Shown here: one piece after another, positions 159 through 45,598 of the stretch
Position numbering within the stretch: position 1 is the stretch's first letter
Layout: each line of letters starts with the position of its first letter
Source of the DNA: an uncultured Acidobacteriota bacterium
Lineage (GTDB): Bacteria; Acidobacteriota; JAQAZP01
Direction of reading: 5' to 3'
Assembly: GCA_963836075.1 (NCBI GenBank)
Contig: CAWIIB010000009.1
Span: 1,760,001 to 1,824,000 of the forward strand
DNA: 64,000 bases
Position numbers and translations under genes: made by a program
Notes under the pieces: model-generated
What the model was told of the DNA's origin: nothing
Database searches by the model: none
Seen by the model: only the letters and a program-made list of their open reading frames with translations

Positions 159-2627
159 ATGAAACGCATCCCATTCATCGTCGTCATGATCCTGTTTCTG
201 TTGCCCCTGTCCGGTTGGGCACTGGACACCGACACCAGGGTGGTCAGCCCGGTCCAATCGTGGAGTGAAGCGGACCTGGCCACCTTCCATGACGGGTGGA
301 TCTACGTGAAGTTCGTCGAGGGATCCGATGTGCTGCTGCGGGACGGGCGGTTCAGCGACGAGAGCGGTCTCCGGCTTCAGACGGTGAACGGCCTGCTCCA
401 GGCCAGCAGCGCCAGCGATGTCCGGCCCACCTTCAAAGGCGACCGCGACCGGTTCCGCCGGCTGAAAGCGTTTGGCGAGGCGAAGTCTGGCGTCACCGGC
501 CCGGATCTCTCCCTCTGGTTCACTCTGCAGGTCCCGGGCGGCAAGGCCGCCCTGGCCCACACGCTCAACGCGCTCAACGCCGACCCGGCGGTGGAGATCG
601 CCCACCCGGCGCCGCAGGTGGAACTGGCAACGGTCCGGCCGGACCACCCGGCCAAAGCCGCGGCGCCCGCGCCGGGCGGCACCCCCGATTTCACCGGCGA
701 GCAGCACTATCTCTACGACCCGCCGGTGGGGCTCAATGCCCCGGCGGCCTGGTCGATTCCCGGGGGCAAGGGCGCGGGGATGAAGTTCATCGACGTGGAA
801 CTGGCCTGGGTGGAAGACCACGAGGATTTCACGGCGGACAACCACTTTTACCTCGGCGGTGCCCCGGAAGATCCGGGGTACAACGACCACGGCACCGCGG
901 TACTGGGCGAGGTGGTGGGCACACACAACAGCTATGGTGTGGACGGCTTTGCCGCCGACGTCCAGTTCGGCATGGTGGCCATCGACATCAACCAGTATCC
1001 CGATACGGCGCAGTACTTCCAGGAGGCGGTGGACAACCTCGATGCCGGCGACGTCTGGCTCATCGAGTTGCAGATGTACCCCTCGGGCCGCGACGCCACC
1101 CCCATGGAATACGTGCAGGTGAACTACGACGTGATATGGACCGGTGTCTTCTCCCGCGGCGTGGTCTGCGTGGAGGCCGGGGCCAACGGCAGCCAGGACC
1201 TGGATTCCGCTGTCTGGGGCGGGATCTTCGACCGCACGGTACGTGATTCGGGCGCGATCATGGTCGGCGCCGGCACCCCCACCGGACGGGTGGCTGAGTC
1301 GTTCACCAACTACGGCAGCCGGATGGATGTCCACGCCTGGGGATCTCAAATTTACACCACCGGATACGGGGACGCTTACAACGGCGGATCACTGCAGACC
1401 GAATACACCGCAAGCTTTGGCGGCACCTCCGGTGCCTCGCCGATGATCGTCGGCTCCTCGCTCTGCCTCCAGGGTATCGCCAGGGCCAACCTCCTGCGGG
1501 TGCTCGAGCCATTGGAGCTGCGGGCACTGCTCCACGATACCGGCATCGAGCACCTCGACCCGTCGCGGGAGATCGGCCCGCGGCCCGATCTCAGCGCAGC
1601 GGCGGCGATGGTGCTCAGCCTCGGCACACCGGTGGTGATCTGCGGCCCCGGACCAGGGATCGGCAACCCGCCGACGGTGCGACTCTTCCCGCCGGAGCAG
1701 GACGCCGGGATGTTGAGCGAGTTCCCGGCCTACGGCGCTTCCGGCTACGGGGTCAATGTGGACTGCGGAACGGTGGGCGGACTATCGGGCACGATCATTA
1801 CCGGTCCCGGCCCGGGGGACATCTACGGCCCCCATGTCCGCGGATTCACCGGCGACGGCACGCCGTTGCCCAGCCTCAGTTTCCTGGCCTACGGCACGCT
1901 GAAATTCGGGGTCAACGTGACCCTCGGCGACCTTGACGGAGACGGTGCCGCCGAGATCGTCACCGGTGCAGGCCCCGGTGCGGTCTTCGGCCCCCATGTC
2001 CGCGCCTTCAGCTACAACGGGTCGTCGGTCACCCCGGTGCCCGGAGTGAGCTATTTCGCTTACGGCACCAACCAGTGGGGGGTCAACGTGGGCTGCGGGG
2101 ACATCGACGGGGACGGCAGTGACGAGATCGTCACCGGCGCCGGGCCGGGCGCCATCTTCGGCCCCCACATTCGCGGTTGGAACGTGGACGGCGGTCCGGT
2201 GGCCACCATCCCGGCGGTGAGCTTCTTTGCTTACGGCACCAACAGGATGGGGGCCAACGTGGCCTGCGGCGACGTGGATGGTGACGGGATCGACGAGATT
2301 CTCACCGCCCCCGGTCCCTCCGGCGTTTTCGGGGCACACGTCCGCGGGTGGAACTTTGACGGGGGCACCGTGGCGGCCATCCCGGGGATCAACTTCTTTG
2401 CCTGGGACTATCCCGCGGTGCGGTTCGGTGCGCGGGTCTCTTCGGGGATCGACTACAACGGGGACGGTGGGGAAGACATGCTGGTCTCCCCGGGCCCCGA
2501 TCCGGAGGCTCCCGCGCAGCTCAAGGTCTTCGGCTACGACGGTTCCACCACATCGCTGCTGTTCTCGCTCAATGCCTTCGATACCGGGATCACCCACGGG
2601 ATCAATGCCGCGGGTGGAATGATCTAG
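159..2627 (+). CDS. Secreted S8 (subtilisin-like) serine peptidase with C-terminal FG-GAP-like tail A
   Basis: Signal peptide; catalytic motifs FIDVE, DHGTAVLG, EAGAN, GGTSGASP; RBS AGAGGA upstream; tail repeats from about 1632. Confidence 0.9.
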   Translation: MKRIPFIVVMILFLLPLSGWALDTDTRVVSPVQSWSEADLATFHDGWIYVKFVEGSDVLLRDGRFSDESGLRLQTVNGLLQASSASDVRPTFKGDRDRFRRLKAFGEAKSGVTGPDLSLWFTLQVPGGKAALAHTLNALNADPAVEIAHPAPQVELATVRPDHPAKAAAPAPGGTPDFTGEQHYLYDPPVGLNAPAAWSIPGGKGAGMKFIDVELAWVEDHEDFTADNHFYLGGAPEDPGYNDHGTAVLGEVVGTHNSYGVDGFAADVQFGMVAIDINQYPDTAQYFQEAVDNLDAGDVWLIELQMYPSGRDATPMEYVQVNYDVIWTGVFSRGVVCVEAGANGSQDLDSAVWGGIFDRTVRDSGAIMVGAGTPTGRVAESFTNYGSRMDVHAWGSQIYTTGYGDAYNGGSLQTEYTASFGGTSGASPMIVGSSLCLQGIARANLLRVLEPLELRALLHDTGIEHLDPSREIGPRPDLSAAAAMVLSLGTPVVICGPGPGIGNPPTVRLFPPEQDAGMLSEFPAYGASGYGVNVDCGTVGGLSGTIITGPGPGDIYGPHVRGFTGDGTPLPSLSFLAYGTLKFGVNVTLGDLDGDGAAEIVTGAGPGAVFGPHVRAFSYNGSSVTPVPGVSYFAYGTNQWGVNVGCGDIDGDGSDEIVTGAGPGAIFGPHIRGWNVDGGPVATIPAVSFFAYGTNRMGANVACGDVDGDGIDEILTAPGPSGVFGAHVRGWNFDGGTVAAIPGINFFAWDYPAVRFGARVSSGIDYNGDGGEDMLVSPGPDPEAPAQLKVFGYDGSTTSLLFSLNAFDTGITHGINAAGGMI
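1632..2627 (+). repeat. Tail A module; other copies at 6242-7243, 20093-21106, 22484-23486, 25885-26886, 54069-55073
   Basis: Six repeats with consensus EIVTGAGPGAVFGPHVRGWNYDG...FFAYGTLKYGVNVACGDIDGDG. Confidence 0.92.
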
Positions 2628-6241: not shown

Positions 6242-8917
6242 TCAGTCTCCGGTGCGGAAGAACTGTCCGCCGGCCACCCGTCCGCCGTGGGTCTGCCCGC
6301 TGATCGCGGAGAAATAAGCGGAGTAGATGATCTGCCCCGTGGCGGAGAGGCTGAAGTAACCCACGTTGCAACCGGTGCCCGGGTCCGGGCCCGGGGCCAC
6401 GATAAACTCGTCCGCACCGTCGCCGTCCAGGTCGGTGCAGGCCACCACGGCGCCGAAGTCGTTGCCGAGGGCGAAGAAGTTGACCTCGGACATGGGGTTC
6501 ACGGCAGCGCCGTCGTAGTTGAACCCGCGGATATGGGCGCCGAAGATCTCACCCGGCCCCGGTCCGGTGATGATCTCCGCCATCCCGTCGCCGTCGATGT
6601 CGCCGCAGGCCACGTTGACCCCGTATTTCAGCGTGCCGTAGGCGAAGAAACTCACTGCCGGGTTGGCAGAGGCCGGCGGGGCGCCGTCGTAGTCCCACCC
6701 GCGCACGTGGGGGCCGAAAACGGCGCCCGGTCCCGCGCCGGTGACGATCTCGTCGAACCCGTCACCATCGATGTCGCCGCAGGCCACGTTGACACCCCAC
6801 TTGAGCGTTCCGTAGGCGAAGTAGCTGGCCCCCGGCAGGGGGATCACCGGAGACGCACCGTCGTAATCCCATCCGCGCACGTGGGGACCGAAGACGGCGC
6901 CCGGTCCCGCGCCGGTGACGATCTCGTCAAAGCCGTCCCCGTCCAGGTCGCCGGCGGTCACATTGACCCCGTACTTGTTGGTGCCGTAGGCGAGGAAGGA
7001 GACCCCGGACAGCGGTGTGCCGTCCAGCTCAAAGGCCCGCACGTGGGGGCCGAACACCGCCCCCGGGCCCGGCCCGGTGAGGATCTCGTCGATGCCGTCC
7101 CCGTCCAGGTCGCCGGCGCCCGGGTTGGCGCCGTAGCGGTCAACCCCGTAGGGCACGATCTCTTCGCCCAACTGGTCGGTGTTGCGTTCAAAGGTCCGCA
7201 CCGCGCAGCGGTTTGTCCCGGCAGGGCCGGGGGCGACCACCGCCCCGCCAGTGCCTCTGAGCTTGTAGAGCAGCCAGAGGTCCGGGTCGAGAATCACTCG
7301 CGTGGGCTGCGGGAGCACGGCGATGGCATAGGTCTCGCTGGCCTGGTGCATTCTGACAGTCTCACGCTGCGTGCCCTCCGGCGTGACGATGGCCAGTTCC
7401 AGCGGCGTGTCGAACAGCGGGGTCTGCGCATTGACCTCCTGCACCTGGTCGACGGTCAGGGAGAGCACGCCCCCGGCCCAGCTCCACTCGTAGCGAAATT
7501 CGGGGTAACCGGCCAGGTAGACCCACTGCTGGAAGAAGGTCTCCAGGTCGAGACCCGAGATATCCTCGGCCGCGGCGATAAAGTCCTCGGTGGTGGCGGT
7601 GGAATAGGCGTGGCGAGTGGCGTACTCGTGGAAGATATCGGCGAACACCTCGTCCCCGGTCATCCGGCGCAGCATGTGCAGCACCCAGGAGCCCTTGTAG
7701 TAGACGGTGAGCCCAAACCAGTAGTCGGGGTCATAGAGCGGGTAGCGGCCCCAGGATTCTTCGTGGCTGAAATACTGCCGGCGGCGGTTCTCCATCCAGC
7801 CCAGGAAGCTGTCGCGGCCGTAGTGGTGTTCGTCGAACAGGGCGTCGAAGTAGGTGGCGAACCCCTCGTTGAGCCAGATGTTCTCCCAGCCGTGGCAACC
7901 AACCAGGTTGCCCCACCAGTGGTGGGCCAGCTCGTGGGCCACCACCCACTCCCAGTCCCGGGAGCCGGTGACCCACTGGGATTCCATGGTGACCATGGTC
8001 TGGTGTTCCATGGTGGACCCGGCGGCGGCCATGGCCTGGCCGAAGGTGGGATAGGGGTAGGGGTAGTAGTTGTCGGAGAAGAAGTCGATCATCTCCGGCA
8101 GGTTCTCCCAGTCGTAGACCGCGTCCTCCATCCGGTCGGGGTAGACGAAGTGTTTGAGCGGCACGCCGCCGGCAGTGGTCTGGGTGTAGTTGTCGTAGTC
8201 CGAGACGGCGAGCATGATCAGGTAGGTGGCGATGGAGTAGTCGTGAAAGTAGTTCCAGGTCATGGTGCCGTCGCCGTTGTCCACCGTGCTCAGCAGGTCG
8301 CCGTTGGAGGCCACCTTCATCGACTGCGGGGCGGTGATGTGCCCGCGGTACCAGTCGGCCCGGTCCTCGGGCAGGTCGCGGCAGGGATACCAGTAGCGGG
8401 ACCCTTCCGGCTCGGTGATCGTCCAGCAAACGCCCCCATTCTGGTCGTCGAAGTGCAGTCCGGTCACCGGTGTTCCGTGGTAGCTGATGGCGAACGACCG
8501 CTCCTCGTCGAGGCCCATGGGCGTGGCCGGCTGAATAATCAACGCCGCGTCGTTGTGATGCCAGGACACCGGGATGGCCCCGCTCTCCACCACGTCCAGA
8601 ACCGTCATCTGCACCAGATCGAGGGTAAAGCCGGTGCACCCCGCTTCCAGGCTGCGCACGCCCACGGTGCAGACGGCGCTGATATATTCCGCGTCGAAGT
8701 CGAGGGTGATGTCGATTTCGTAGGAGACCACATCGATGTTGTCGCTGGAAGAGCTCTCCCTGGTTTCGTGGTTGCGGTGTTCCCAGGCGGGTGCGGGCTG
8801 TGGACCCTTGCCGGCATCGAGGATTTCGTCAGGGATCCTCGCCTCCAGTGGGGCTGAGGGAAGAAGGCCGAGAACGAGGACAAGAAGAAGGACTGCTGCA
8901 CCGCTGCGATTGCGCAT
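6242..8917 (-). CDS. Secreted M1 family zinc aminopeptidase with tail A
   Basis: Signal peptide; HELAHHWWGN...WLNEGFATY (HEXXH-X18-E), STMEH, YYKG; tail repeats in 6242-7243. Confidence 0.92.
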   Translation of the reverse strand: MRNRSGAAVLLLVLVLGLLPSAPLEARIPDEILDAGKGPQPAPAWEHRNHETRESSSSDNIDVVSYEIDITLDFDAEYISAVCTVGVRSLEAGCTGFTLDLVQMTVLDVVESGAIPVSWHHNDAALIIQPATPMGLDEERSFAISYHGTPVTGLHFDDQNGGVCWTITEPEGSRYWYPCRDLPEDRADWYRGHITAPQSMKVASNGDLLSTVDNGDGTMTWNYFHDYSIATYLIMLAVSDYDNYTQTTAGGVPLKHFVYPDRMEDAVYDWENLPEMIDFFSDNYYPYPYPTFGQAMAAAGSTMEHQTMVTMESQWVTGSRDWEWVVAHELAHHWWGNLVGCHGWENIWLNEGFATYFDALFDEHHYGRDSFLGWMENRRRQYFSHEESWGRYPLYDPDYWFGLTVYYKGSWVLHMLRRMTGDEVFADIFHEYATRHAYSTATTEDFIAAAEDISGLDLETFFQQWVYLAGYPEFRYEWSWAGGVLSLTVDQVQEVNAQTPLFDTPLELAIVTPEGTQRETVRMHQASETYAIAVLPQPTRVILDPDLWLLYKLRGTGGAVVAPGPAGTNRCAVRTFERNTDQLGEEIVPYGVDRYGANPGAGDLDGDGIDEILTGPGPGAVFGPHVRAFELDGTPLSGVSFLAYGTNKYGVNVTAGDLDGDGFDEIVTGAGPGAVFGPHVRGWDYDGASPVIPLPGASYFAYGTLKWGVNVACGDIDGDGFDEIVTGAGPGAVFGPHVRGWDYDGAPPASANPAVSFFAYGTLKYGVNVACGDIDGDGMAEIITGPGPGEIFGAHIRGFNYDGAAVNPMSEVNFFALGNDFGAVVACTDLDGDGADEFIVAPGPDPGTGCNVGYFSLSATGQIIYSAYFSAISGQTHGGRVAGGQFFRTGD

Positions 8918-17608: not shown

Positions 17609-17769
17609 CATGTGTTACCCCGAAGGGGGGTAACCTTCGGGTTTACTTTGCTCCAAAATTGCGGTATGTATAACCCAACGTGTACTGTTTCAATGGGATA
17701 TTGCCCATCGTTGAAATAGTTAAAATCCTCGGTCAACGTCTTTTTTACGTATCAAGGGAGGGATGATTC

Positions 17770-19785
17770 ATGCGGATGTTCTCACACGATCACCTCCGGC
17801 GCCCACTCAGCGCCTTGGGGGTGGTGATGCTTCTGGCCCTTCTCGGCGCGGCACCGGCCGCGGCCAGCGTGGAAACACTCTCCAACGCGTTCGCCGCCGC
17901 ATCACCGGGAAGCGGGTACGACACCCTGCTGGTGCTGGATGGGCAAAATATCTACACCGGTGGCTTAACCCTTCCCCCGGGTAACCACTGCATCCTGGGC
18001 AATGGAGCGGTCCTCAACCTCCAGGGCCTGAGCGTGGAAGCGGGCAACGGGGTGATCCTCGACGTCAGCGGCTGCTCCTTCACCAACGGCGTCATGGGCC
18101 TGGATTTCACTGCCGGTTCCATGGGCCACGTGGAGTGCTGCAATTTCATCGGCAACAATGACGGCCTGCGGGCCTGGGAAGGTTCGTCGGTGACCCTGGT
18201 CAGCAACAACTTTGTCGACAACAGCCACTACGGGGTCTACCGCCACGAGTATGGCGGGGTGTTCAACGCCTACAACAATGCCTGGGGCAACGCGGTTAAC
18301 GACTACGTCTACTATTGCCCCGGGTGAGGCGGCGGATCGGACTCCGCTGAGAGTCCGGTGCCGGGTACCGGCACCATTTACGCTGATCCGCTCTTCGCCA
18401 TGGAATACATCAACGATTTCCACCTCACCGCTCCTTCCCCCTGTGTGGGCACCGGCCTCGACAGCTACGACATCGGCGCTCTGCCGTTCACCGTCCGCGC
18501 CGCAGCCCCCGGCGGCATCTCTGCCACACCGGTGGGGGTCACCGAGGACTGTGACCTCGCCTGGACCAACCCGACCCACGACACCGACGGAAACGTCCTG
18601 GCATCGCTGGACGGGGTCAACGTCTACCGCAACGGCGAACTGCTGACCACCCTGTCCCCGGCCTCGCCCGGCCAGGCGATGAACCATACCGACACCGTTC
18701 CCATCTCCGACTGGTGCCGCTACACCGTTTCGGCGGTGAGCGGGGGCACTGAAGGGCTGCGCGGCAGCCACGCCGAACTATGGGTCGGCGGCGACGTCAC
18801 CGGGATCCTGGTCTGGAACCTCGGCACGCAAAAGGAGAACGGTGAAGCGGTGCGCGACGCCATCCTCAGCCGGTCCTATGACAACGTTGTGCGCCTGGTG
18901 GAACAGCCTGGCCGCTACCCGCTCTCCGACGGCGTGGACGCTGTCTTCGTGCTCCTCGGGGTCTACGGATGGAACTACGTCCTCGGAGACACCGAGAGCC
19001 AGCTGCTGGTGGACTACCTCGACATGGGCGGCAATGTCTACATGGAGGGGAGTGACACCTGGTATTTTGATCTGGCCACGCCCGTTCACACCTACTTCAA
19101 CATCAACGGTGTCGCCGACGGCAGTGCCGACTGCGCCACCGTGCGCGGTGCGGCGGGCACCTTTACCGACGGGATGAACTTCACCTACACCGGCAACAAC
19201 TCCTACATCGACCACCTGGCCCCCATCGGCTCGGCGTTCACCATCCTGAGCAACGTCACCCCGGCCTATGACGCCTGCGTGGCCTACGACAGCGGCAGCT
19301 ACAGGACCATCGGCTGCTCCTTCGACTTTGCCGGCCTCAGCGGCGGCTCGGCGAGGGAAACCCAGGCGGAGCTGATGGCCGCCATGCTCGAATTCTTCGG
19401 CCTGACCAATGGATATGTGGACACCCTGACGGTGGAGCTGGCCTGCACCCCGGACAGCGGCACGCTGCCCTTTGCCTTCCAGCTGGCGGTGTCGATACAG
19501 AACCTCACCGACCAGTCGCGGGTGATGGCCGCCCATCTCGATGTGGTTCTCGCGTCGGGCGCCTCCTATCCCAACTTCCGCGCCGGCTACACCACCATGG
19601 GGCCCGGCGAGACGTTCAGCACCAGCTGGATGCAGACCCTGCCCGCACTGAGTGGGCTGGTGGGAGCCAACCTGATGGTCCTCACCGGCCAGGATGTTAC
19701 GCCTGCGCCCTACAACCAGCCGCCGTACCACCCCTCGGGCGATACGGACGCCACCGCGGTCGAACTGTTCGGCATCCATCCCTAG
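17770..19785 (+). CDS. Secreted beta-helix/Fn3-like protein with tail B; candidate selenoprotein (in-frame TGA at 18325-18327, CPGU)
   Basis: ORFs 17770-18327 and 18358-19785 share a frame and are separated only by one TGA; beta-helix repeats continue into the ADPLF..DFHL..SPC..DIGA cap; signal peptide. Confidence 0.75.
18333..18363 (+). promoter_or_regulatory. SECIS-like stem-loop
   Basis: ATCGGACTC (18336-44), loop CGCTGA, GAGTCCGGT (18351-59); loop starts 17 nt after the TGA with G at loop position 2. Confidence 0.6.
19420..19785 (+). repeat. Tail B module; other copy at 39211-39579, remnant at 53973-54058
   Basis: Shared CxPxSGTxPF, AHLDVVLAxGAxYPNxRAGYT, SWxQ, QDVTPAPYNQPPYxPxGDT. Confidence 0.9.
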
Positions 19786-19794: not shown

Positions 19795-19830
19795 CCGCCG
19801 GCCCGGCATTCCCGTCGGGCCGGCATTTTC
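19795..19830 (+). terminator. Intrinsic terminator
   Basis: GCCGGCCCG / CGGGCCGGC stem followed by ATTTTC. Confidence 0.6.
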
Positions 19831-19980
19831 ATGTACGCAATCAGGGGTGGCCACCAACAGCCTGTCAATTTCGTCCTGTCGCCTCTTGCTCAGTTGTATT
19901 AAGATGGGGTGCAGAACAGAATCAGACCGGTGAGCGGTATTCATCCGGACGGTCTGGAACCCACAAAAGGAGCAGCGCAC

Positions 19981-20092: not shown

Positions 20093-22306
20093 TCAGAATC
20101 GTCCTGCAGCCACCTTTGTCCCGTGAGTCCACCCTTCGGGGTAGGCCTCGAAGGAGAACCAGAGCGTGGCCTGCAGCCCATCGTATGTGAAGACCTTCAC
20201 CGGTGATCCCACTGTCGGATCCGGGCCGCCTCCCACCACGATCTCGTTCCGGCCGTCATCGGTGAGATCGGTGCCGGCAAAAATCTCGGCGCCGTATCGC
20301 GCCTGTTCCAGCGGCCAGGCAAAGAAGCTCAGCCCGGGCATCGGAGCCACCTCAGCCCCGTCGTAGTTCCAGCCGCGGATGTGGGCTGGGAAAAGCGCGC
20401 TCGGGCCTGGAGCGGTGATGATCTCTTCCATGCCGTCGCCGTCCACATCGCCGCAGGTTACTTCCACACCGAACTTGTTGGTGCCGTAGGCCATAAAACT
20501 CACTCCGGGTATGGGGTCGGTGTGCGGGTCGGAGGAGGTGATGAAGCAGTTCCAGCCGCGCACGTGGGGCCCGAAAACCGCCCCGGGACCGGCACCGGTG
20601 ACGATCTCGTCCCTGCCGTCACCGTCGATGTCGCCGGCGGCCACGTTGACCCCCCACTTGTTGGTCCCGTAGGCGAAGAAATTGACGCCGGGCACGGGGA
20701 AGGATCCGGTACCACCATCGCTAAGGAAGGCCCGGACGTGGGGACCGAAGACCGCTCCCGGACCGGGGCCGGTGATGATCTCGTCATGCCCATCGTTGTC
20801 GATGTCTCCGGCTGCGACGTTGACACCCCACTTGTGGGTTCCGTAGGCAATAAATGACGTATAGGGGACAGCATACCCGCTCGGTTCGAAAATACGGACG
20901 TGGGGCCCGAAAACGGCGCCCGGCCCGGCGCCGGTGATAATTTCGGGGGTATCGTCATCGAACAGGTTGCCGGTGGTCACATTGGCTCCGTAGTGTTGGG
21001 AGGAATACGCGTTGAACTCCTCCACCTGCAGCGGGTCCTGGCCCGGGATGAACAGACGTACCCTTGTCGGGTTGTCATATGCCGGACCGGGGCCGGTGAC
21101 CACGGCAGGGCCGTCGTTGGTGCTGAACAGGTCGCTCCACTCGTACTCCAGCCGCGGCGTGTTGCCCGGATCGAGACGCCCCTGGACCCAGATGGTCATC
21201 TCCTCCCGGCCGCGATACGCGACGCTCATCTTGTGCAGGCCGCTCGATCCCATCAGCGACCAGTGGCTCTGCAGGTCCTTGGTCCCGCCCTGGTCGTAGT
21301 AGTCGGCCATGAACTCGGCGCCCGCCGGGGTGTAGGTGCCGTCAGTCCAGGCGTTGGCGGTGAGCAGCACGTCGCCACCGAAGTAGGAGGCCTTGGGCGT
21401 ACGGAGGTCGTAGAAGCCCGAGTCCCGGCTGCAGGTGAAGACGCCGCCGTAGCCAACGGGTACGAAGCAGTTGATGAAGCTGCCGGTCCAGGTGTGGACC
21501 CCTTCCAGATCATGCCAGGAATCGTAGAGGTGTTCATCGATGGACGAAAACCAGTTTGGCTCGGTTGTAATGTAACGCGCCGCCGCGGTGCGCAGCAGGG
21601 CGTCGGCGTGGGGCACGCCGCCGGTGTTGTAGTCGTGCAGCGAGACCTGGGTGCCGTATTCGTTGAGCGTGGTGATGCCCACCACATAGCCGGCCCAGGA
21701 GAGACCCAGCCAGGCAGTGCCGTCACTGGGCTCCCAGGCGCAGAGCACGTGGTGGTTGATCGAGGTGTAGGGGCTGCCGAAGTCGAGGCGGCGGGTGGAG
21801 AGGGTTTTCACCGGCGGCTCGACGAACTGGCCCCAGCAGGAGTGGGAGCGGCAGGCCGGCGGGTAGCTCCAGTCGCCATACCCGTTGGCCACCTTGAGGT
21901 CCAGTTTGTCGATACTCTCCCCGGGGTACAGTTCGGCCAGGGCGTCCACCATGCCGTCCAGTTCACTCTCGATCACCACCGGCATCCAGGTGGCGTCGTC
22001 CATGGCCTGACGCATGGCGTCGTAGCCGCTGCCCAGGATTGACACCATGTCGTTGTGTATGGCAACGATCTCGTCGGCCAGCAGGTAGCCATGGGCATAG
22101 CCCATATCGTAGTGCGAACCCCAGACGTGGAGAACCGTGTAGCCCTTGCCCTCGGCGTCCACCTGCTGGTCGAGAATCACGCCGTTGACGGCCAGGGCCG
22201 GAAGAGCGGCTATTGAAAAGAGAATGAAAACGAAAAAGGCGATGCCGGCGGTGGACCATAACGAAGAGTGATCAATGGAGCGGTTCGGAATCTTGAGATG
22301 AGCCAT
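20093..22306 (-). CDS. Secreted C45-like/Ntn-hydrolase protein with tail A
   Basis: VWGSHYDMGYAHG, a putative autocleavage Cys (ACRSHSCWG), STRRLDF, TTLNEYG; GGAGG RBS at start 22306. Confidence 0.7.
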   Translation of the reverse strand: MAHLKIPNRSIDHSSLWSTAGIAFFVFILFSIAALPALAVNGVILDQQVDAEGKGYTVLHVWGSHYDMGYAHGYLLADEIVAIHNDMVSILGSGYDAMRQAMDDATWMPVVIESELDGMVDALAELYPGESIDKLDLKVANGYGDWSYPPACRSHSCWGQFVEPPVKTLSTRRLDFGSPYTSINHHVLCAWEPSDGTAWLGLSWAGYVVGITTLNEYGTQVSLHDYNTGGVPHADALLRTAAARYITTEPNWFSSIDEHLYDSWHDLEGVHTWTGSFINCFVPVGYGGVFTCSRDSGFYDLRTPKASYFGGDVLLTANAWTDGTYTPAGAEFMADYYDQGGTKDLQSHWSLMGSSGLHKMSVAYRGREEMTIWVQGRLDPGNTPRLEYEWSDLFSTNDGPAVVTGPGPAYDNPTRVRLFIPGQDPLQVEEFNAYSSQHYGANVTTGNLFDDDTPEIITGAGPGAVFGPHVRIFEPSGYAVPYTSFIAYGTHKWGVNVAAGDIDNDGHDEIITGPGPGAVFGPHVRAFLSDGGTGSFPVPGVNFFAYGTNKWGVNVAAGDIDGDGRDEIVTGAGPGAVFGPHVRGWNCFITSSDPHTDPIPGVSFMAYGTNKFGVEVTCGDVDGDGMEEIITAPGPSALFPAHIRGWNYDGAEVAPMPGLSFFAWPLEQARYGAEIFAGTDLTDDGRNEIVVGGGPDPTVGSPVKVFTYDGLQATLWFSFEAYPEGWTHGTKVAAGRF

Positions 22307-22405
22307 TGTGCCCTCCGCAGGTTGGACGTAATCCGGAAGTAATCGCTTCATCAATGAGAGAATTTATATCACGATGAGAGAGGGCCGGCAACGGTGGGGT
22401 AGCAC

Positions 22406-22483: not shown

Positions 22484-25400
22484 CTAGAAATCCCCTCCGG
22501 CGATCTTACCTCCCTGGACCAGTCCCAGGTCACCATAGGCGTCGAAGTCGATGGTGGTGATGGGCGTCGCCGTTCCGCCGTCCACGTTCCAGGCCCGGGC
22601 CAGGGCCGTCTGGGACGGGTCGGGTCCAGGCATGGTCAGGATCTCGTCAGTCCCGTCTCCGTCCACGTCCGCACCAGCCACCTGCGCACCGTAGAGGGCG
22701 CCGGGGTAGGCGAAGAAGTTGACTCCGGACAGTGAAGTCACCGTGCCGCCATCGTAGTTCCACCCCCGGACCTGCGGTCCGAAGACCACACCCGGTCCGG
22801 GACCGGTGATGATCTCGTCGATCCCGTCGCCGTCGATATCGGCACAGGCCACGTTGACACCGTATTTCAGGGTGCCGTAGGCGAAAAAGCTCACCGCGGG
22901 GATGGATGCGGCCGCGCCGCCGTCGACGTTCCAGCCGCGGACGTGCGGACCGAAGACAGCCCCCGGGCCGGCGCCGGTGACGATCTCGTCGTAGCCGTCG
23001 CCGTCGATGTCACCGCAGTCCACGTTGACCCCCCACTTCAGCGTCCCGTAGGAGAAATAGCTGATGCCGGGGATGGATGCGGCCGCACCGCCGTCCACGT
23101 TCCAGCCGCGGACATGGGGCCCGAAGACGGCCCCCGGGCCGGCGCCGGTGATGATCTCGTCATTGCCGTCGCCGTCGACGTCGCCGCAGGCCACGTTTAC
23201 TCCATACTTCAGTGTGCCGTAGGCGAAGTAGTTGACACCGCTCACGGGAGTGCCGCTGCCGCTAAAGGCCCGGACGTGGGGGCCGAAGATGGCGCCGGGC
23301 CCCGGCCCGGTGACGATCTCGTCGGTACCGTTACCGTCAAGGTCACCGACGGCCACGTTGACGCCATACCCGTCCGCGCCGTAGGCCGACCACTGGGTGA
23401 TGGCGGAAGTGGGGTTGGCGGCATTCCAGGTGCGCACCAGGGTGGGGTTCGCCTGGGCCTGGCCGGGTCCGGTGACCAGCTTCAGCGAACTGGGGGCGGC
23501 AGCGGTGGTGGCGCTGAGCATCAGTTCGTCGACCACGATACGCCCCTCGTCGGAGCCCCATGACGGGCCACAGTCGAAGCGGATCGCCGCCACGTTGGCC
23601 AGGTTGAGGCCGGAACCGTTGTTGAGGAAGTCGGTGAGCCGGATGCGGGTCACTTCCATCTCGTTGTGCCACCCGCTGCTGCGGTCGTAGGGCTGCTCCA
23701 GGCCGCCGCCATACGCCCCGATGTTGATCGAGCTGGTGTTGCCGCTGCCGTCGCGCAGGGTGACGCTGAAGGTCAGGTCGCCCATGACGGCCAGCGTGTT
23801 GGGGTGCCGTGTTCCCTGGGCCCCGCGGAAGGAGAAGTAGTCGTAGTCGGCAAAGTTGCTCAGTCCGGGAACGACTTCCCATTCGATGTAGTGGTCGGCC
23901 CCGGTCCAGTCGAAGACCACCCCCGCGCTGTCGTCTGATCCCTGCGACGAGGCCTGGGTCGCCCCATTGAACGGGTCGCTGGCCGACCAGGCGAAACTGC
24001 TGGTGCTGTCGTCCATACGGCCTTCCGTCACGTTCTCCACCGTGAAGGTGACGGCCCCCCCGGAGCTGCTGACCATGGTGGACGGGCTGCTCTGGAAGTC
24101 GTCGATATAGGCGGTTGTTGACGGGTCACCGTTGCGATACTCGTGGGTCACCACGATGCAGGGGTTGGTGACATCCACGCCGATGGGGTGGAAGCGTTCA
24201 TACTGCCGCCAGAGGAAGTCGTGGGCCGGGATGTTGCCTTCGATGTAGTGCTTGACCAGCGGCAGGAAATATCCCTGCTGGATGAGGTGCGTGTTCTCCT
24301 CGCCGATGGAGCAGGGCCCGGTGAACCAGGAAGTGCCGCCGCCGTCGTGGAACCAGCCGTGGCCGGTGCCCTGCACCACCGTCGACTGCCGGTGGCTGGT
24401 GGCCCGGTCGTGCAGGTGGAAGGTCTGGCAGAGGTCGCAGCCCGCCGAGCCGTCGACGTCCGCGTCCCCCGCGGCCGTCCAGAGGTGGTAGTTGACATCG
24501 TGGGGGTTGGAGCTGTTGGTCTTGAGAAAATCGGTGGGCAGCATGCTGCTCAGTAGTTTTATATCGCTGATGGTGAAGTTGTCCGGGGTGTACGCTCCGT
24601 CGAAGAGCCGGTCGTAGGCCCGGGCAATCCCCTCGCCGCCGCGGCTGTGGCCGATCCAGGTGATGGCGTGGGAGTTGAGGTGCCCGTCCAGCACGCCCCC
24701 GCCGATGGAGCCCTGGTTACCGATGATGTAGTCGGTATTGGTCAGCGTGGTGGTGGAGGCGGTCTCGATCCCCGGCCCGGTGTTGTTCTGGTGAGACATG
24801 ACGATGTAGCCATAGGAGGCCAGGTGGTAGCCGATGTGGTCATACCAAATATATTGGTGGCCGTTGCCGTGGCTGATAACCACCAAGGGCAGCTGGCCCA
24901 TGGTGGCGATGTCGGTGGGGTAGTAGAGATCCTGGCCGAGATAAGACCCGCCGCTGTAGATGATCTCGGTCACATCCAGCGGGCCGGGCTGGGTGGTGTC
25001 GTGCACCATGTAAAATCCGGCCTCGCTGCCGAAACCGTCGATGTAGTCCGGGTCGTCCAGCTGGCCGTTCTGGTTCATGTCGACGACCACGTCATACCCC
25101 ACGCCGAGGCCGGTGCCGGCATCGGCGTCGAGGGTGTCGGCCGCGGCCACCACCCGGCGGTTGTCCTGGATCGAGGCCCCGCTGAAGGTGATGGCCAGCG
25201 GTCCACCGGCCACGTCGGTCAGCGCCGGGTCCGATGTCCACTGGGCTTCGTCTTTCGCCTCGACGATATAGATGTCCGCCGTTTGACCCACGATGCCCGG
25301 GAAACGGAAGGGGTCCATGGCCACGCGCACTTCGGCATCGACGTTGATTGCCCTGACATACTCAAAATAGGGGTAGACGGGACTGTTGTTGCCGGCAAGC

Positions 25401-25507
25401 TCGGTTCGCTGCCCGGCAGGCGGAGGCGCAGCCTGGGCAATGCCTGTGGCGACGATCAGCAGCAAAGCCGCTGTGAGTAGTGAGGCCGTGAAGGCTCTAC
25501 ACACCAT
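22484..25507 (-). CDS. Secreted alpha/beta-hydrolase-fold protein with tail A
   Basis: LPLVVISHGN, HLASYGYIV, nucleophile elbow GHSRGG; signal peptide from ATG 25507 (the ORF extends to 25615). Confidence 0.8.
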   Translation of the reverse strand: MVCRAFTASLLTAALLLIVATGIAQAAPPPAGQRTELAGNNSPVYPYFEYVRAINVDAEVRVAMDPFRFPGIVGQTADIYIVEAKDEAQWTSDPALTDVAGGPLAITFSGASIQDNRRVVAAADTLDADAGTGLGVGYDVVVDMNQNGQLDDPDYIDGFGSEAGFYMVHDTTQPGPLDVTEIIYSGGSYLGQDLYYPTDIATMGQLPLVVISHGNGHQYIWYDHIGYHLASYGYIVMSHQNNTGPGIETASTTTLTNTDYIIGNQGSIGGGVLDGHLNSHAITWIGHSRGGEGIARAYDRLFDGAYTPDNFTISDIKLLSSMLPTDFLKTNSSNPHDVNYHLWTAAGDADVDGSAGCDLCQTFHLHDRATSHRQSTVVQGTGHGWFHDGGGTSWFTGPCSIGEENTHLIQQGYFLPLVKHYIEGNIPAHDFLWRQYERFHPIGVDVTNPCIVVTHEYRNGDPSTTAYIDDFQSSPSTMVSSSGGAVTFTVENVTEGRMDDSTSSFAWSASDPFNGATQASSQGSDDSAGVVFDWTGADHYIEWEVVPGLSNFADYDYFSFRGAQGTRHPNTLAVMGDLTFSVTLRDGSGNTSSINIGAYGGGLEQPYDRSSGWHNEMEVTRIRLTDFLNNGSGLNLANVAAIRFDCGPSWGSDEGRIVVDELMLSATTAAAPSSLKLVTGPGQAQANPTLVRTWNAANPTSAITQWSAYGADGYGVNVAVGDLDGNGTDEIVTGPGPGAIFGPHVRAFSGSGTPVSGVNYFAYGTLKYGVNVACGDVDGDGNDEIITGAGPGAVFGPHVRGWNVDGGAAASIPGISYFSYGTLKWGVNVDCGDIDGDGYDEIVTGAGPGAVFGPHVRGWNVDGGAAASIPAVSFFAYGTLKYGVNVACADIDGDGIDEIITGPGPGVVFGPQVRGWNYDGGTVTSLSGVNFFAYPGALYGAQVAGADVDGDGTDEILTMPGPDPSQTALARAWNVDGGTATPITTIDFDAYGDLGLVQGGKIAGGDF

Positions 25508-25823
25508 GCCGTAATTCTCCCTGCCGGATCTTTCTCTAATTGTGGTCACGAAGTTCTCCTTCTCACCTGTTCGAGGTTCCGGAGGGCATGGCCGGTGGCC
25601 CCCGGTGATCGACACCTACCTGATAGTTTGGAGACGATGCGCCTGTTCCTCATCACCGGGCTGGCTGGCACGCGGGGCAAAGTCCCCGCACCCCGCGACC
25701 GGTTCCCACCATGGGAAACCACCAGGCCGCGGAGGAAGGTGCCGTGCACGGCACCGGTGTCACTGACATCGCGGTGGAGGAAGTTGTGCAGGCGTCCGGC
25801 AAGAATAATAGCACACTGACGAC

Positions 25824-25884: not shown

Positions 25885-28365
25885 CTAGAAGCCTCCCCCC
25901 GCGACCTTGCCGCCGCCCATCAACATCAGGTCACCGTAAGCGTCGGCGTCGATCTCGGTGATGAGCTCCGCCATCCCTCCGTCGACGTTCCAGGCCCGCA
26001 CAACGGCACCAATGGTGGAGTCGGGACCAGGCATGGTCAGGATCTCGTCGAAGCCATCACCGTCCAGGTCGAGCCCCGCCACCCGCGCGCCGTAGAGGGC
26101 GCCGTCATAGGCGAAGAAATTGACACCGGACATCGCCTCCAGAGTGCCGCCGTCGTAATTCCAGCCGCGGATATGCGGACCGAAGATTTCCCCTGTACCC
26201 GGGCCGGTGAGAATCTCGTCGATCCCGTCACCGTCCAGGTCGGCGCAGCCCACGTTCAACCCCCACTTCAGTGTGCCGTAGGCGAAAGCGTTGATACCGG
26301 AGATGGGTGTGAGCGTGCCGCCGTCCACGTCCCAGCCGCGGACGTGGGGGCCGAAGACGGCTCCCGGTCCGGGACCGGTGATGATCTCGTCGAAGCCGTC
26401 GCCGTCCACGTCACCGCAGGCCACGTTGACGCCCCACTTCAGGGTGCCGTAAGCGAAGCCGTTGATACCGGAAATGGACATGGCCGTGCCGCCGTCAACA
26501 TCCCAGCCGCGGACGTGGGGGCCGAAGACGGCTCCCGGGCCGGCGCCGGTGATGATCTCGTCGTATCCGTCACCGTCAACGTCGCCGCAGGCCACGTTCA
26601 CTCCATACTTCAGCGTGCCGTAGGCGAAGAAATTTACCCCGTCCACCGGCGTGCCGTCGGTGCCAAAGGCGCGGACTTGGGGCCCGAAGACCGCCCCCGG
26701 GCCGGGACCGGTGACCACGGAATCGATGCCGTCGTCACCCAGAACACCGCAGGCGACATTGACGCCGTAATCTTCAGCGCCGTAAGCCGGCCACTCGCCG
26801 ATGAGGGCCAGGGAGTCGTTGGGATCCCAGACGCGCACCATCGTCGGATTGTCCGGCGCCGCACCGGGGCCGGTCACGATCAGCGGCATGGTTGGATCCG
26901 GTCCGCCGCCGGTGCTGCAATTGTAGATCTCGCAGGCCAGCGTGGCCCAGTCGCCGGTACCGTAAGTGACTCCGGTATTGCCCGGGCTGTAATAGACCTT
27001 GCGGTCCGCCCGCCAGGCCACGGCCAGGCTGTTGTCCGGGTTGCTGAACGTCCCGTCGGAGACCGCTCCGCTGATTGCCGTGCAAGCGTCGAAATAGTCG
27101 GAGGCGTAGGCGCCGACCCCCTCGTGCACGCAATCGGTACCATCCATGTTGTAGGCGCCACTCTGGTAGGCACTTGCGGTGATGGGGCAATAGGCCTCGG
27201 TCATGATCCTGCCTTCCAGCCAGTTGACCTGGGTGGTATGGAAGCACCACTGGCCCAGCACCACTACGCCACCGCCATCAACGTAGTCCGCGAGGTTGTC
27301 GCCGTAGGCGACGGCATCGGCGAAGGCATAGTTGCCCCAGACGATAACCATGTCATAGCCGGAGAGCGTGGCCAGGTCCGGCGTGGCACTGATCGCGTCG
27401 AAGTAGTCCACATCCACCCCGGTGCAGGCGGCAAGGTCGGCGCGGAAGGTCGCGTTGTCCGCTTCGGACGGAGCGTAGAGGATGGGCCCGCCGCCGGGTC
27501 CACCGTCATCGCAGAGGAACATCTGGCCGGACACCGCGGCCCAGTCTCCGGTGCCGTAGGTGACCCCGGTGTTGCCCGGGCTGTAATAGACCATGCGGTC
27601 CGCCCGCCAGGCCGCGGCCAGGCTGGTATCCGGATTGCTGAACGTCCCGTCGGAGACCGCTCCGCTGATTGCCGTGCAAGCGTCGAAATAGTCGGAGGCG
27701 TAGGCGCCGACCCCCTCGTGCACGCAATCGGTGCCGTCCATGTTGTAGGCGCCACTCTGGTAGGCACTTGCAGTGATGGGGCAATAGGCCTCGGTCATGA
27801 TCCTTCCTTCCAGCCAGTTGACCTGGGTGGTATGGAAGCACCACTGGCCGAGGACCACCTTGCCCCCGCCGTCAACGTAGTCCGCAAGGTTGTCGCCGTA
27901 GGCGACGGCGTCCAAAAAGGCATAGTTGCCCCAGACGATCACCATGTCGTAGCCGGAGAGCGTGGCCACGTCCGGGGTGGCCGCTCTCGGGTCGAAGTAG
28001 TCGACAGTCGCCCCGGTCCAGGTGGCAAGGTCAGCGCGGAAAGTCGAGTTGTCATTTTCGGACGGTGCGTAAAGGATCATCGGTCCGCCCCGGCCGTCAG
28101 GCGGGGTGAGGTCGTGGCCCTGGAAGACATAGGTCAGTGTTTCACCCGTGTTTCCCACCAGCGTCTTCGGCGTCAGGTCGACCACCGCTTGGGGGGTAAT
28201 CTCCTTCTCCTGGGCTGCGGGGATCCACACCTCACCCGTGTTCCCCACCTGCATCTGCGGCGTCGCCTTGTCGATGGTAGCGGCGGACACCGTGGCGGCC
28301 AGAACCGTAACGGCCAGGACCAGGATGCCGGCTACGGTGAGCAATCTGCGTGAGAAATGACTCAT
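25885..28365 (-). CDS. Secreted protein with a tandemly duplicated 198-aa domain and tail A
   Basis: Signal peptide; AAGGAG RBS; two near-identical ILYAPSE...YGTGDWA units. Confidence 0.85.
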   Translation of the reverse strand: MSHFSRRLLTVAGILVLAVTVLAATVSAATIDKATPQMQVGNTGEVWIPAAQEKEITPQAVVDLTPKTLVGNTGETLTYVFQGHDLTPPDGRGGPMILYAPSENDNSTFRADLATWTGATVDYFDPRAATPDVATLSGYDMVIVWGNYAFLDAVAYGDNLADYVDGGGKVVLGQWCFHTTQVNWLEGRIMTEAYCPITASAYQSGAYNMDGTDCVHEGVGAYASDYFDACTAISGAVSDGTFSNPDTSLAAAWRADRMVYYSPGNTGVTYGTGDWAAVSGQMFLCDDGGPGGGPILYAPSEADNATFRADLAACTGVDVDYFDAISATPDLATLSGYDMVIVWGNYAFADAVAYGDNLADYVDGGGVVVLGQWCFHTTQVNWLEGRIMTEAYCPITASAYQSGAYNMDGTDCVHEGVGAYASDYFDACTAISGAVSDGTFSNPDNSLAVAWRADRKVYYSPGNTGVTYGTGDWATLACEIYNCSTGGGPDPTMPLIVTGPGAAPDNPTMVRVWDPNDSLALIGEWPAYGAEDYGVNVACGVLGDDGIDSVVTGPGPGAVFGPQVRAFGTDGTPVDGVNFFAYGTLKYGVNVACGDVDGDGYDEIITGAGPGAVFGPHVRGWDVDGGTAMSISGINGFAYGTLKWGVNVACGDVDGDGFDEIITGPGPGAVFGPHVRGWDVDGGTLTPISGINAFAYGTLKWGLNVGCADLDGDGIDEILTGPGTGEIFGPHIRGWNYDGGTLEAMSGVNFFAYDGALYGARVAGLDLDGDGFDEILTMPGPDSTIGAVVRAWNVDGGMAELITEIDADAYGDLMLMGGGKVAGGGF
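26945..28085 (-). repeat. Intragenic tandem duplication, period 594 bp
   Basis: Matching anchors 28058/27464 and 27541/26947 both differ by 594; long stretches are identical at DNA level. Confidence 0.9.
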
Positions 28366-37632: not shown

Positions 37633-37995
37633 TAATCCTGGGCCAGTTCACCCATTTGTTGCGCCGGATGCATGTCATCCTGAGACGATTGACGCATGCG
37701 TCGGTAAGTGCAACATCATCAAACATTACGGAATTTACAGGAGGGAGGTCCGTCTGAATATGTCCGGTAAAATATTCGTTGCATATAATACCTATAGTGT
37801 ATATATTCAATTGCGCTGCACTGGATGACAAGGAATCTGCAATACAGGTTGACAGACTGTTGTATGCCTTGGCCTCTTTGCGTCCTTCCAACTAAAACCT
37901 GATCGAACTTCAAGGCCCTCGGTATCTGTTTTTCAATGAGTATTGCCGTGGAGCTGAACAACTGCGACACACAACAAACAAGAGGAGTCAGGCCA

Positions 37996-39579
37996 ATGAA
38001 GTTCTCTACCATTATTGCCAAGCGCATCCCAGGTTTACTCTTCTGTGCTCTTTTGACCGGAATCGTTATCATCGCCGTCCCGGTCTGGGGCCAGGTGATC
38101 AATGAGGATACCAAGCTGGTGGCAAACGACGGCGCGGCGTATGACGGGTTCGGCAAGTCCGTCGCCATCGCCGGCGGCATGATCGCCATCGGGGCCTGGG
38201 ATGATGACGACAATGGCCCCGGTTCGGGGTCCGCCTACGTGTTCGATGCGGCCACCGGCGGGCAGTTGGTCAAGCTCCTCCCGAACGACGGGGGTGCCGG
38301 TGAAGCATTTGGCATATCCATCGCCATCGACAACGGGATCGTTGCCGTGGGGGCGTGGAGTGACGGGGATAGCGGCACATGGTCCGGCTCCGCCTATCTC
38401 TTCGATGCTTCCACCGGTACACAGCTCTTCAAGCTCCTCTCCACCGATGGAGCCGCGGACGACTGGTTCGGCAGTTCCATCGCCATCGCTGACGGCATCG
38501 TCGCCGTCGGGGCCTACAAAGACGACGACAACGGCACCAACTCCGGCTCCGCCTATCTCTTCGATGCCTCCACCGGAATGCAGCTCTTCAAACTCCTCCC
38601 CGATGACGGCAGTGAGGACGATGAATTCGGCAACTCCATTGCCATCGCTGGGGGAGTGGTCGCCGTTGGGGCGCACCAGGACAACCCCTACGATTCCTGG
38701 TCCGGGTCAGCATATCTGTTCGATGCGTCCACCGGCCTGCAGCTCGCCAAACTCATCCCGCTTGACGGAGAAGCCCTCGACCAGTTCGGCGAGTCGATCG
38801 ACATCGACGGTGATGTTGTTGCCGTCGGGGCACGGTTCGGCGATACCTTCGGCCATGGCTGGGCGTATCTGTTCGATGCCACCTCCGGCGCTCAGACGGC
38901 CAAACTCGTTCCAGCCGACCCGGCGATCGGAGCCAACTTCGGCATGTCCGTCGGCATCGACAATGGTGAGGTGGTTGTTGGGGCCTTCAAGGACGACGAC
39001 AATGGTTTCCAGTCCGGCTCCGCGTACCGTTTTGATGCTTCCAGCGGAGCAGAGACCGCCAAACTCCTCCCCAGCGACGGAGCGTCGGGAGACTACTTCG
39101 GCCAGTCCATCGCCATCGAAAATGGTGTCGTCGTCGTTGGAGCACTCCAGGACGACGACAACGGCCTCAGCTCCGGCTCCGCCTATGTTTTTGGCACCCC
39201 GGGTTTCACGTCCACGGTGTCGGCAGCGATGACCTGCAAGCCGTCCTCGGGAACGGTGCCCTTCGTGACGCTGATGACGGTGACGCTGAATAACCTATAC
39301 CTGGATCAGATCCGGCGGGTGTCGGCCCATCTGGACGTGGTATTGGCCGGCGGCGCCGAGTACCCCAACTGGCGGGCCGGGTATACCAACGTGGCTGCGG
39401 GGTCCAGCCTCATCTCCTCCTGGAACCAGAACATCCCGTCACTGGGCGCAGTGATCGGGAACAATGTGTTCACGGTGGTGGCCCAGGACGTGACGCCTGC
39501 GCCATACAACCAGCCGCCCTACCCGCCGGCGGGGGACACGGCCACTGCCGGCTGCACGGTTACCGGGGTATCGCCATAG
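37996..39579 (+). CDS. Secreted FG-GAP repeat (integrin alpha-like propeller) protein with tail B
   Basis: Seven FGxSIAI..VAVGA..DDDNG..SGSAYLFD repeats; signal peptide; GAGGAG RBS. Confidence 0.9.
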   Translation: MKFSTIIAKRIPGLLFCALLTGIVIIAVPVWGQVINEDTKLVANDGAAYDGFGKSVAIAGGMIAIGAWDDDDNGPGSGSAYVFDAATGGQLVKLLPNDGGAGEAFGISIAIDNGIVAVGAWSDGDSGTWSGSAYLFDASTGTQLFKLLSTDGAADDWFGSSIAIADGIVAVGAYKDDDNGTNSGSAYLFDASTGMQLFKLLPDDGSEDDEFGNSIAIAGGVVAVGAHQDNPYDSWSGSAYLFDASTGLQLAKLIPLDGEALDQFGESIDIDGDVVAVGARFGDTFGHGWAYLFDATSGAQTAKLVPADPAIGANFGMSVGIDNGEVVVGAFKDDDNGFQSGSAYRFDASSGAETAKLLPSDGASGDYFGQSIAIENGVVVVGALQDDDNGLSSGSAYVFGTPGFTSTVSAAMTCKPSSGTVPFVTLMTVTLNNLYLDQIRRVSAHLDVVLAGGAEYPNWRAGYTNVAAGSSLISSWNQNIPSLGAVIGNNVFTVVAQDVTPAPYNQPPYPPAGDTATAGCTVTGVSP

Positions 39580-45584: not shown

Positions 45585-45598
45585 GGGAGAAGCGAACC

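Follow-up and report, generated by a model that had tools for sequence, protein, structure and literature searches.

A candidate new family of exported beta-helix selenoproteins in an uncultured Acidobacteriota bacterium

Introduction

In 2026, 119 prokaryotic selenoprotein families and subfamilies were catalogued, the majority of the characterised ones thioredoxin-like, and motifs of the CxxU type (cysteine and selenocysteine separated by two residues) usually mark redox proteins (PMC13188914). Here we describe a gene at positions 17770-19785 of a 64,000-nucleotide stretch of DNA from an uncultured Acidobacteriota bacterium (contig CAWIIB010000009.1; the whole stretch is called the window below) that is interrupted by an in-frame UGA and very probably encodes a selenoprotein. 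The closest described systems are the CxxU selenoproteins, among them the SelW-like (PF10262), AhpD-like (TIGR01926), and GrdA (PF04723) proteins (PMC13188914). The gene shares with these the UGA, a cysteine three residues upstream of it, a downstream hairpin within the coding region, and the existence of Cys-containing homologues. The known CxxU families are mostly small, cytoplasmic, and thioredoxin- or AhpD-like, whereas the product here would be an exported multidomain protein of 671 residues with selenocysteine (Sec) on a beta-helix.

Three further groups of proteins invite comparison. Among selenoproteins exported from the cytoplasm, the TonB-dependent receptor type (PMC13188914) also has a CxxU motif but differs in its beta-barrel fold, and no sequence match links it to the window protein; the text of the catalogue contains "secret" and "signal peptide" zero times each, and no catalogued family is described as cargo of the type IX secretion system (T9SS). 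Beta-helix proteins (PF13229 and the NosD family PF05048) and the "choice-of-anchor Q" modules (NF041518) share the repeats and the cap DP.F...DF.L...SPC..G...D.GA, and many of our database matches are such capped beta-helix modules in giant surface proteins, but these generic modules carry neither Cys nor Sec at the turn (P0113, for example, reads ...YSDVQGG...). T9SS type A cargo proteins have a sorting domain (TIGR04183) that is also found in the Calditrichaceae orthologues described below and in several Cys-type homologues, whereas the last ~120 residues of the window protein form another, poorly modelled segment.

Searches for an existing description of the family gave none. No beta-helix or NosD-like entry stands among the 119 families in Table 1 of the catalogue (PMC13188914). 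The window protein has no NCBIfam match at E ≤ 1 (release 20.0), and NCBIfam models on the orthologues are limited to T9SS, FlgD-Ig, and beta-helix-repeat models, with no selenoprotein model. No beta-helix family is among the new families named in the body of the deep-Sep paper (PMC12013277), and neither Caldithrix nor Calditrich- occurs in the body of PMC5029168; unnamed candidates might be listed in the supplementary tables of these papers. Full-text literature searches on selenoproteins combined with beta-helix, NosD, Calditrichota, or type IX secretion returned nothing relevant.

Results

An in-frame UGA at the same column in nine loci

The gene appears as two open reading frames (ORFs) on the plus strand, 17770-18327 (185 residues from an ATG start, ending with the TGA at 18325-27) and 18358-19785 (475 residues from a GTG start), which lie in one frame (offset 588 nt) with that TGA as the sole interruption. 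A preliminary description of this DNA had read the two ORFs as a single 671-residue protein with Sec at residue 186, and our own reading gives the same frame, length, and position (...NDYVYYC-P-G-U-GGGSDSAESPVPGTGTIYADPLF..., with UGA as codon 186; Table 1). We regard the UGA as very probably a genuine Sec codon within one single gene, and the decisive support for this is comparison with relatives, not the window alone.

A scan of genome contigs yielded 51 loci, eight of which (L001-L007 and L009) also encode the N-terminal domain and form, together with the window, the nine-locus set used throughout. L001 shares 82% protein identity with the window; the remaining seven orthologues, at 33-36%, come from Calditrichaceae metagenome-assembled genomes (MAGs), plus one MAG labelled Deltaproteobacteria. 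All nine loci have TGA in frame at the same column. The eight orthologues share [WF]-C-[PETS]-[GS]-TGA-G-G-G-S around it, and their reading frame then continues for another 471-485 codons. A tblastn search with residues 31-250 against the window and the 51 loci found no copies beyond the nine known. The differently labelled locus, L002, is titled "Deltaproteobacteria bacterium", and in gene and flanks it hardly differs from the Calditrichaceae MAGs L003 and L009; this is probably a labelling or binning discrepancy.

Conservation runs directly across the TGA. Invariant in the nine-sequence alignment are C183, U186, G187-G188-G189-S190, P196, P198, G199, G201, P207, and F209, and both halves of the gene are under purifying selection. 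The GGGS segment immediately following the UGA is spelled with different codons in different loci (GGC, GGA, GGG, or GGT for the first Gly; GGA, GGT, or GGC for the third; TCG, TCA, or TCC for Ser). The first in-frame ATG, GTG, or TTG past the TGA lies 9, 11, 11, 24, 24, 29, 32, 32, and 49 codons on in the nine loci, and no restart codon is conserved among them. Because this position varies from 9 to 49 codons, re-initiation cannot account for the conservation after the TGA; the invariant residues that directly follow the TGA, ahead of any start, can therefore arise only by translation through it.

Split relatives and cysteine at the putative selenocysteine column

The same split recurs in close relatives. 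The fused protein as query gave 12 matches; the seven closest ones, at 72-100% identity, consist of the downstream ORF alone (437-476 residues) and align with no more than the downstream part (65-71%) of the query, and four start at the same V/M-PGTG as the second ORF of the window. With the upstream ORF as query, 12 of 13 matches are 183-185 residues long (62-96% identity); 11 of these 12 end in ...CPG and one in ...ISPG. Three upstream/downstream pairs sit on equally sized contigs (4714, 48306, and 449674). Since the close relatives are split likewise, the split belongs to the whole clade and not to this assembly. The upstream-ORF relative with the deviating end (P0169) reads ...NDYENISPG, not ...DYVYYCPG, and thus has Ser in place of Cys (S-x-x-stop) with the truncation point kept.

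To place the junction in the wider family, the first 270 residues were compared by HMMER with 1.84 billion cluster representatives (50% identity), which gave 209 matches at E ≤ 1e-3; the junction counts rest on 149 of these representatives (P0014 to P0162). Forty-five stop exactly at the junction (35 as C-x-x, nine as C-x, and one as C), and 13 continue through it with CGC, CSC, CDC, or CAC, that is, with Cys at the Sec column. The CxC of these 13 corresponds exactly to the nine clusters ending in C-x; the CxxU of the window is one residue longer than CxU or CxC, so the column assignment takes a one-residue indel. The preliminary description had asked for homologues with TGA or Cys at this column, and both exist: TGA at nine of nine loci and Cys in the 13 CxC representatives. 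Some relatives have neither Cys nor Sec there, for example, W-GG-W forms.

The Cys-type homologues are single continuous chains through the beta-helix region. In a quickly built maximum-likelihood tree with 67 rows of the N-terminal domain (13 of 64 inner branches strongly supported), the truncated rows, which we take as Sec-type, are interleaved with the Cys-type rows, and at least six state changes are needed; this is the usual pattern of what would be Sec/Cys exchange. Nine of the Cys-type homologues (P0023, P0033, P0053, P0057, P0061, P0062, P0075, P0081, and P0093) are short, at 116-293 residues, and end a few residues past a conserved W-G-x-[IL]-K-x-x-[FY]-R with no further domain; this ending looks like a distinct C-terminal signal.

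A conserved hairpin at the upper limit of SECIS spacing

In the bacterial consensus for the selenocysteine insertion sequence (SECIS), of the Zhang and Gladyshev type, the spacing from the UGA is 16-37 nt (PMC13188914). The hairpin that the preliminary description put forward, at 18336-59, is present as described, with its loop starting 17 nt past the UGA (-12.8 kcal/mol folded alone). It is not conserved: the eight relatives form only 3-5 bp stems at this place, with different loops that mostly have no early G (-2.4 to -9.0 kcal/mol overall, a different 5-bp stem in L001, and 3-5 bp at -2.4 to -7.5 kcal/mol in the Calditrichaceae genes). We therefore rejected 18336-59 as a conserved SECIS element, since it is window-specific and the relatives form short, different stems, while it may contribute in this lineage.

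What is kept in all nine loci is the next hairpin, at 18357-18375, for which RNAalifold predicts pairing of 18357-18364 with 18368-18375. Across the nine loci its stem has 7-8 bp (-9.0 to -14.6 kcal/mol) and its loop starts 37 nt past the UGA without exception, reading GUA in seven loci, GUG in one, and GAA in one (L006). At the aligned stem positions, 97.2% of cells are paired; shifting the partner columns by 1-3 positions lowers this to 21-44%. Double-sided changes occur in four of the eight pairs, and the covariation score was reached by none of 500 column shuffles. Two of the covarying pairs link synonymous third positions (Pro198-Thr200, and codon 197-Gly201), and their covariation is therefore not explained by selection on the protein. 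Both features of a test for bacterial SECIS elements (bSECIS), a stem-loop 16-37 nt downstream and an early G in the apical loop, are found in this hairpin. It shares with the consensus a coding-region stem-loop with a small, G-first loop, 7-8 bp, and a minimum free energy of -9 kcal/mol or lower, and differs in that its spacing is the upper limit and in that a second, variable hairpin fills the gap. Taken by itself, the local fold of the window sequence departs only modestly from shuffled sequence, with z = -3.09 for the 61 nt from the UGA (2 of 200 shuffles as good) and z = -1.77 for the 70-nt stretch 18316-18385 (11 of 200).

Points against selenocysteine and alternative explanations

Several observations weigh against reading UGA186 as selenocysteine. 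The 45 truncated clusters are known only as predicted proteins, so that their stop codons were not seen. For the hairpin at 18357-18375, the 37-nt spacing is the extreme of the consensus and the loop is just 3 nt; the G of the L006 loop is not followed by G or U; the individual minimum-energy folds of L004 and L006 take other pairings; and the local folding z-scores of the relatives are unremarkable (-0.03 to -1.27). Cys-type homologues likewise keep the P-x-P-G-T-G peptide that this hairpin encodes, so the nucleotide conservation is partly protein-driven, and the double-sided changes amount to few independent events (the split of the two clades plus one within Calditrichaceae) because the sequences form only two deep clades. 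Rfam gave no SECIS match, with zero matches of any kind for the whole window at the gathering threshold and, at E ≤ 10 on 18250-18450, six unrelated matches at chance level, none to a SECIS family. As to the machinery, Pfam found no selA, selB, or selD among the 41 ORFs of the window, which covers only 64 kb of the genome, and no SelA, SelB, or SelD among 57 ORFs in the ~14-kb flanks of L001, L002, L004, L005, and L006; ARAGORN found no tRNA, and hence no tRNA-Sec, in the window. The absence of Sec genes from the window and the flanks is uninformative rather than negative, and we infer selenium incorporation at UGA186 from the comparison of sequences.

One alternative is that the UGA is read through without Sec, by a near-cognate Trp, Cys, or Arg tRNA helped by the hairpin or by a suppressor tRNA of the lineage. 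The lack of visible Sec machinery in the window and examined flanks would fit this, as would the position of the hairpin at the edge of the bSECIS spacing range and the predicted protein P0021, which has W at the column (CPGWGS). That protein (298 residues, ...ENCPGWGSIW...) falls within a clade of C-x-x-truncated proteins, and its Trp could come from a genuine TGG codon or from a TGA that the source translated with table 4. We nevertheless consider non-Sec read-through improbable. The partner at the column is Cys in the 13 CxC proteins, which argues for Sec, since Sec/Cys exchange is a signature of Sec and not of Trp or Gly read-through; a Cys two or three residues upstream makes the CxU and CxxU motifs typical of catalogued selenoproteins; and the hairpin fits the bSECIS consensus. 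We know of no conserved hairpin-stimulated stop-codon read-through of this kind in bacteria.

A second alternative takes the UGA as a true stop between two genes, a 185-residue secreted beta-helix stub and a 475-residue protein made by translational coupling or re-initiation. Gene callers in every source predict the split, and both the window and L001 have a GTG 11 codons past the TGA with a weak GAGAG a few bases upstream. A two-gene arrangement is very improbable in our judgement: the restart is not conserved, the first in-frame start being locus-dependent; the invariant GGGS...P.PG.G...P.F, with its synonymous variation, precedes the starts; and the frame is identical in all nine loci. The downstream product would have no signal peptide, yet it carries a T9SS sorting domain in orthologues, and the Cys-type homologues are continuous. 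The predicted beta-helix spans the junction. The Shine-Dalgarno-like site before 17770 is strong, no comparable conserved site stands ahead of the second ORF, and no terminator-like site lies between the two ORFs.

A pseudogene lesion, or an error of assembly or sequencing, as the origin of the TGA has nothing in its favour beyond the presence of the stop codon and a negligible probability, given the same TGA in nine independent assemblies, 12 close-relative and 45 distant clusters that end at the same position, and purifying selection on both halves. A code in which TGA is sense genome-wide, as in table 4 (Trp) or table 25 (Gly, whose reading C-P-G-G-G-G-G-S would be a plausible glycine loop), is just as remote and falls because TGA is the usual terminator here, ending 17 of 27 Pfam-supported ORFs in the window. 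A scan of both window strands for in-frame TGAs with at least 60 open codons of coding-like third-position G+C content (GC3) on each side found five sites in the 64 kb (18325, 46789, 40332, 55410, and 60048). The TGA at 46789 is a stop with a start codon directly after it, and those at 40332 and 55410 are antisense to Pfam-supported genes, so that among these four only 18325 has no such trivial explanation and a single credible in-frame TGA remains in the window. The G+C content of the window, 64%, is unlike that of known TGA-recoding lineages.

Protein architecture and predicted export

An AlphaFold2 (AF2) model of the full-length protein, built on a 42-row alignment, has a mean predicted local distance difference test score (pLDDT) of 78.1, with residues 34-545 mostly at 80-97 (some 10-residue blocks at 69-79) and most of 548-671 below 50. 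It suggests four regions after the signal peptide (Table 1). In the first, a strand ladder at residues 45-219 (pLDDT mostly above 90) crosses the ORF junction, with strands at 177-183, 190-193, 209-211, and 216-219 around it; the CPGUGGGS turn itself scores 69-77, and the model exceeds 88 on either side. The preliminary description had seen a CxxU motif in a beta-helix protein, and both parts agree with our results, C183 and U186 being invariant in nine of nine sequences and the predicted beta-helix continuing through the junction.

Scores with family models lie on both sides of the thresholds. The Pfam Beta_helix model PF13229 (cut-off 25.9 bits) gives 25.1 bits for residues 60-162 of the window protein, 22.0 for L001, 27.8 for L002, 29.7 for L004, and 35.1 for L006. 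With the NosD model PF05048 (cut-off 23.6) the window protein reaches 13.9 bits, and L004 (24.6) and L006 (26.2) come just over the cut-off in a short repeat region only; scores with the NosD model TIGR04247 are far under its 300-bit cut-off. Foldseek against the PDB found no informative match for the Sec-bearing beta-helix.

Beyond the helix, the model suggests an Ig/Fn3-like fold for the beta-sandwich at residues ~245-335. The alpha/beta domain that follows is the most conserved part of the protein, with an invariant GGNVYMEG.DTWY. Pfam gave no match to this domain in the window protein; Foldseek against the PDB matched it to non-catalytic domains of GH42 beta-galactosidases (8ibt_B, E 4.3e-6), and also to the N-terminal domain of IFT52 (5fms_A, target-normalised TM-score (TMt) 0.60) and to ADC synthase. 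In a sequence search of the PDB with the orthologue profile, all matches fell on segments of FlgD-Ig or T9SS-tail-like type, and neither the beta-helix nor the alpha/beta domain had any.

A Sec-type signal peptide at residues 1-33 is probable from the sequence; AF2 places an isolated low-confidence helix at residues 13-26, and the orthologues have classic N-terminal signal-like segments. The T9SS sorting domain TIGR04183 (cut-off 23 bits) scores 30.2 in L002, 32.2 in L005, and 41.7 in L006, and the NCBIfam scan gave no match to it in the window protein.

Table 1. Features of the predicted selenoprotein gene and its surroundings (positions in the window)
Feature	Position	Strand	Remarks
Selenoprotein gene, single (predicted)	17770..19785	+	671 codons including UGA186, then TAG stop
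Shine-Dalgarno-like site AAGGGAGGG	17754..17762	+	7 nt 5' of the ATG; read from sequence
Sec-type signal peptide, probable, residues 1-33	17770..17868	+	basic n-region, hydrophobic core, AAAS before VETL
Right-handed beta-helix (predicted), residues ~34-240, across the UGA	17869..18489	+	Pfam near-threshold, AF2, homologues
C183-P-G-U186 motif (TGC CCC GGG TGA)	18316..18327	+	C183 and U186 invariant in 9/9 orthologues
UGA in frame, probably read as selenocysteine	18325..18327	+	same column in 9/9 loci
GGGS codons right after the UGA	18328..18339	+	protein invariant, synonymous sites vary
Hairpin of the preliminary description, 9 bp, one U-G pair, loop CGCUGA	18336..18359 (18336-44/18351-59)	+	window only
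Conserved SECIS-like hairpin, 8-bp stem GGUGCCGG/CCGGCACC, loop GUA	18357..18375	+	kept in 9/9 loci
Beta-sandwich (possibly Ig/Fn3-like), residues ~245-335	18502..18774	+	AF2: 7-8 strands, pLDDT ~90
Alpha/beta domain, class-I glutamine-amidotransferase-like (flavodoxin-like), residues ~340-545	18787..19404	+	Foldseek
C-terminal ~120 residues, lineage-specific	19411..19782	+	pLDDT <50
Terminator-like 11-bp hairpin (19797-19824) + ATTTTCATGT	19797..19834	+	12 nt past the TAG

Neighbouring genes and other observations in the window

FG-GAP repeats occur in seven large ORFs of the window (159-2627, 6242-8917, 20093-22354, 22484-25615, 25885-28365, 37936-39579, and 54069-57167), among them an S8 peptidase and an M1 peptidase that have FG-GAP at their C-termini, and the selenoprotein gene lies among them; FG-GAP may be the surface-anchoring module of this lineage, replacing the T9SS tail. 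L001 retains an FG-GAP neighbour downstream of the selenoprotein gene. Pfam annotation of the 41 window ORFs and 57 flank ORFs revealed no partner gene conserved between the clades, and the neighbouring genes offer no functional clue.

Three other places in the window deserve mention. On the minus strand at 40409-44162, a xanthine-dehydrogenase-like gene is divided between two ORFs in different frames that overlap by 98 nt, 42261-44162 with FAD_binding_5, two 2Fe-2S domains, and an a/b-hammerhead, and 40409-42358 with MoCoBD_1 and MoCoBD_2; a frameshift, whether erroneous or programmed, could explain this, as could a naturally divided gene. On the plus strand, 57563-59428 and 59425-60552 are tandem citrate-synthase-family genes with a 4-nt overlap, the first with an N-terminal extension of ~250 residues. 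The region 44326-47817 holds long minus-strand ORFs with no Pfam match, and the plus-strand ORFs within it (44694-45584, 45618-46460, and 46795-47568; GC3 0.88-0.92) are probably the real genes.

Discussion

We propose that 17770-19785 is translated as one chain with selenocysteine inserted at UGA186 in the usual bacterial manner: a hairpin in the coding part of the mRNA, just downstream, would recruit SelB together with GTP and Sec-tRNA(Sec). The recruiting element would most likely be the 8-bp hairpin with the GUA loop at 18357-18375, and the variable hairpin ahead of it may serve as a spacer or accessory stem. The conserved hairpin lies at a place different from the one that the preliminary description named.

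The product would be exported via its signal peptide, and the Calditrichaceae orthologues also via the T9SS sorting domain, as a chain of beta-helix, beta-sandwich, glutamine-amidotransferase-like (GATase1-like) alpha/beta domain, and C-terminal domain. Cys183-x-x-Sec186 would sit on a glycine-rich turn among the last rungs of the beta-helix, where the two residues could form a reversible selenenylsulfide and so a redox-active or metal/chalcogen-binding centre outside the cytoplasm. In the Cys-type homologues, CxC would be the sulfur version doing the same job. The reliance on SelB, the export, and the chemistry proposed for CxxU are all predictions, the last drawn from nothing but the type of motif. 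CxxU and CxC motifs are generally known for redox behaviour; a redox-centre function here is possible, and we propose it tentatively.

As to classification, the protein appears to represent a new and widespread family of a known kind, the bacterial selenoprotein, with an unusual fold, an unusual location, and a SECIS element at the edge of the model; we file it as new because the catalogue, NCBIfam, and the literature hold no match. This agrees with the preliminary description, which did not recognise the fold as that of a selenoprotein family, and the absence of a match extends to Pfam and Rfam. A broader reading, to which we would give somewhat less than even chances, is that this gene is the first to be recognised from a large superfamily of beta-helix selenoproteins that act outside the cell and have been overlooked. 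Its members would be exported by the Sec pathway and T9SS and would use a CxxU or CxU centre, exchangeable with CxC, for extracellular redox or metal/chalcogen chemistry.

Every source annotates the gene as hypothetical proteins of 185 and 475 residues, and at least 45 diverged clusters appear likewise truncated. If the broader reading is true, SECIS predictors and annotation pipelines systematically split such genes, and the selenoproteome is under-counted in uncultivated phyla such as Calditrichota. The SECIS-like element at the 37-nt limit is a useful test case for SECIS predictors, and the interchange of CxU and CxC across the family lends itself to studying which advantage Sec has over Cys under oxidising conditions outside the cell. 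Selenocysteine on a secreted beta-helix would add a new fold to selenium biochemistry and take that biochemistry outside the cell.

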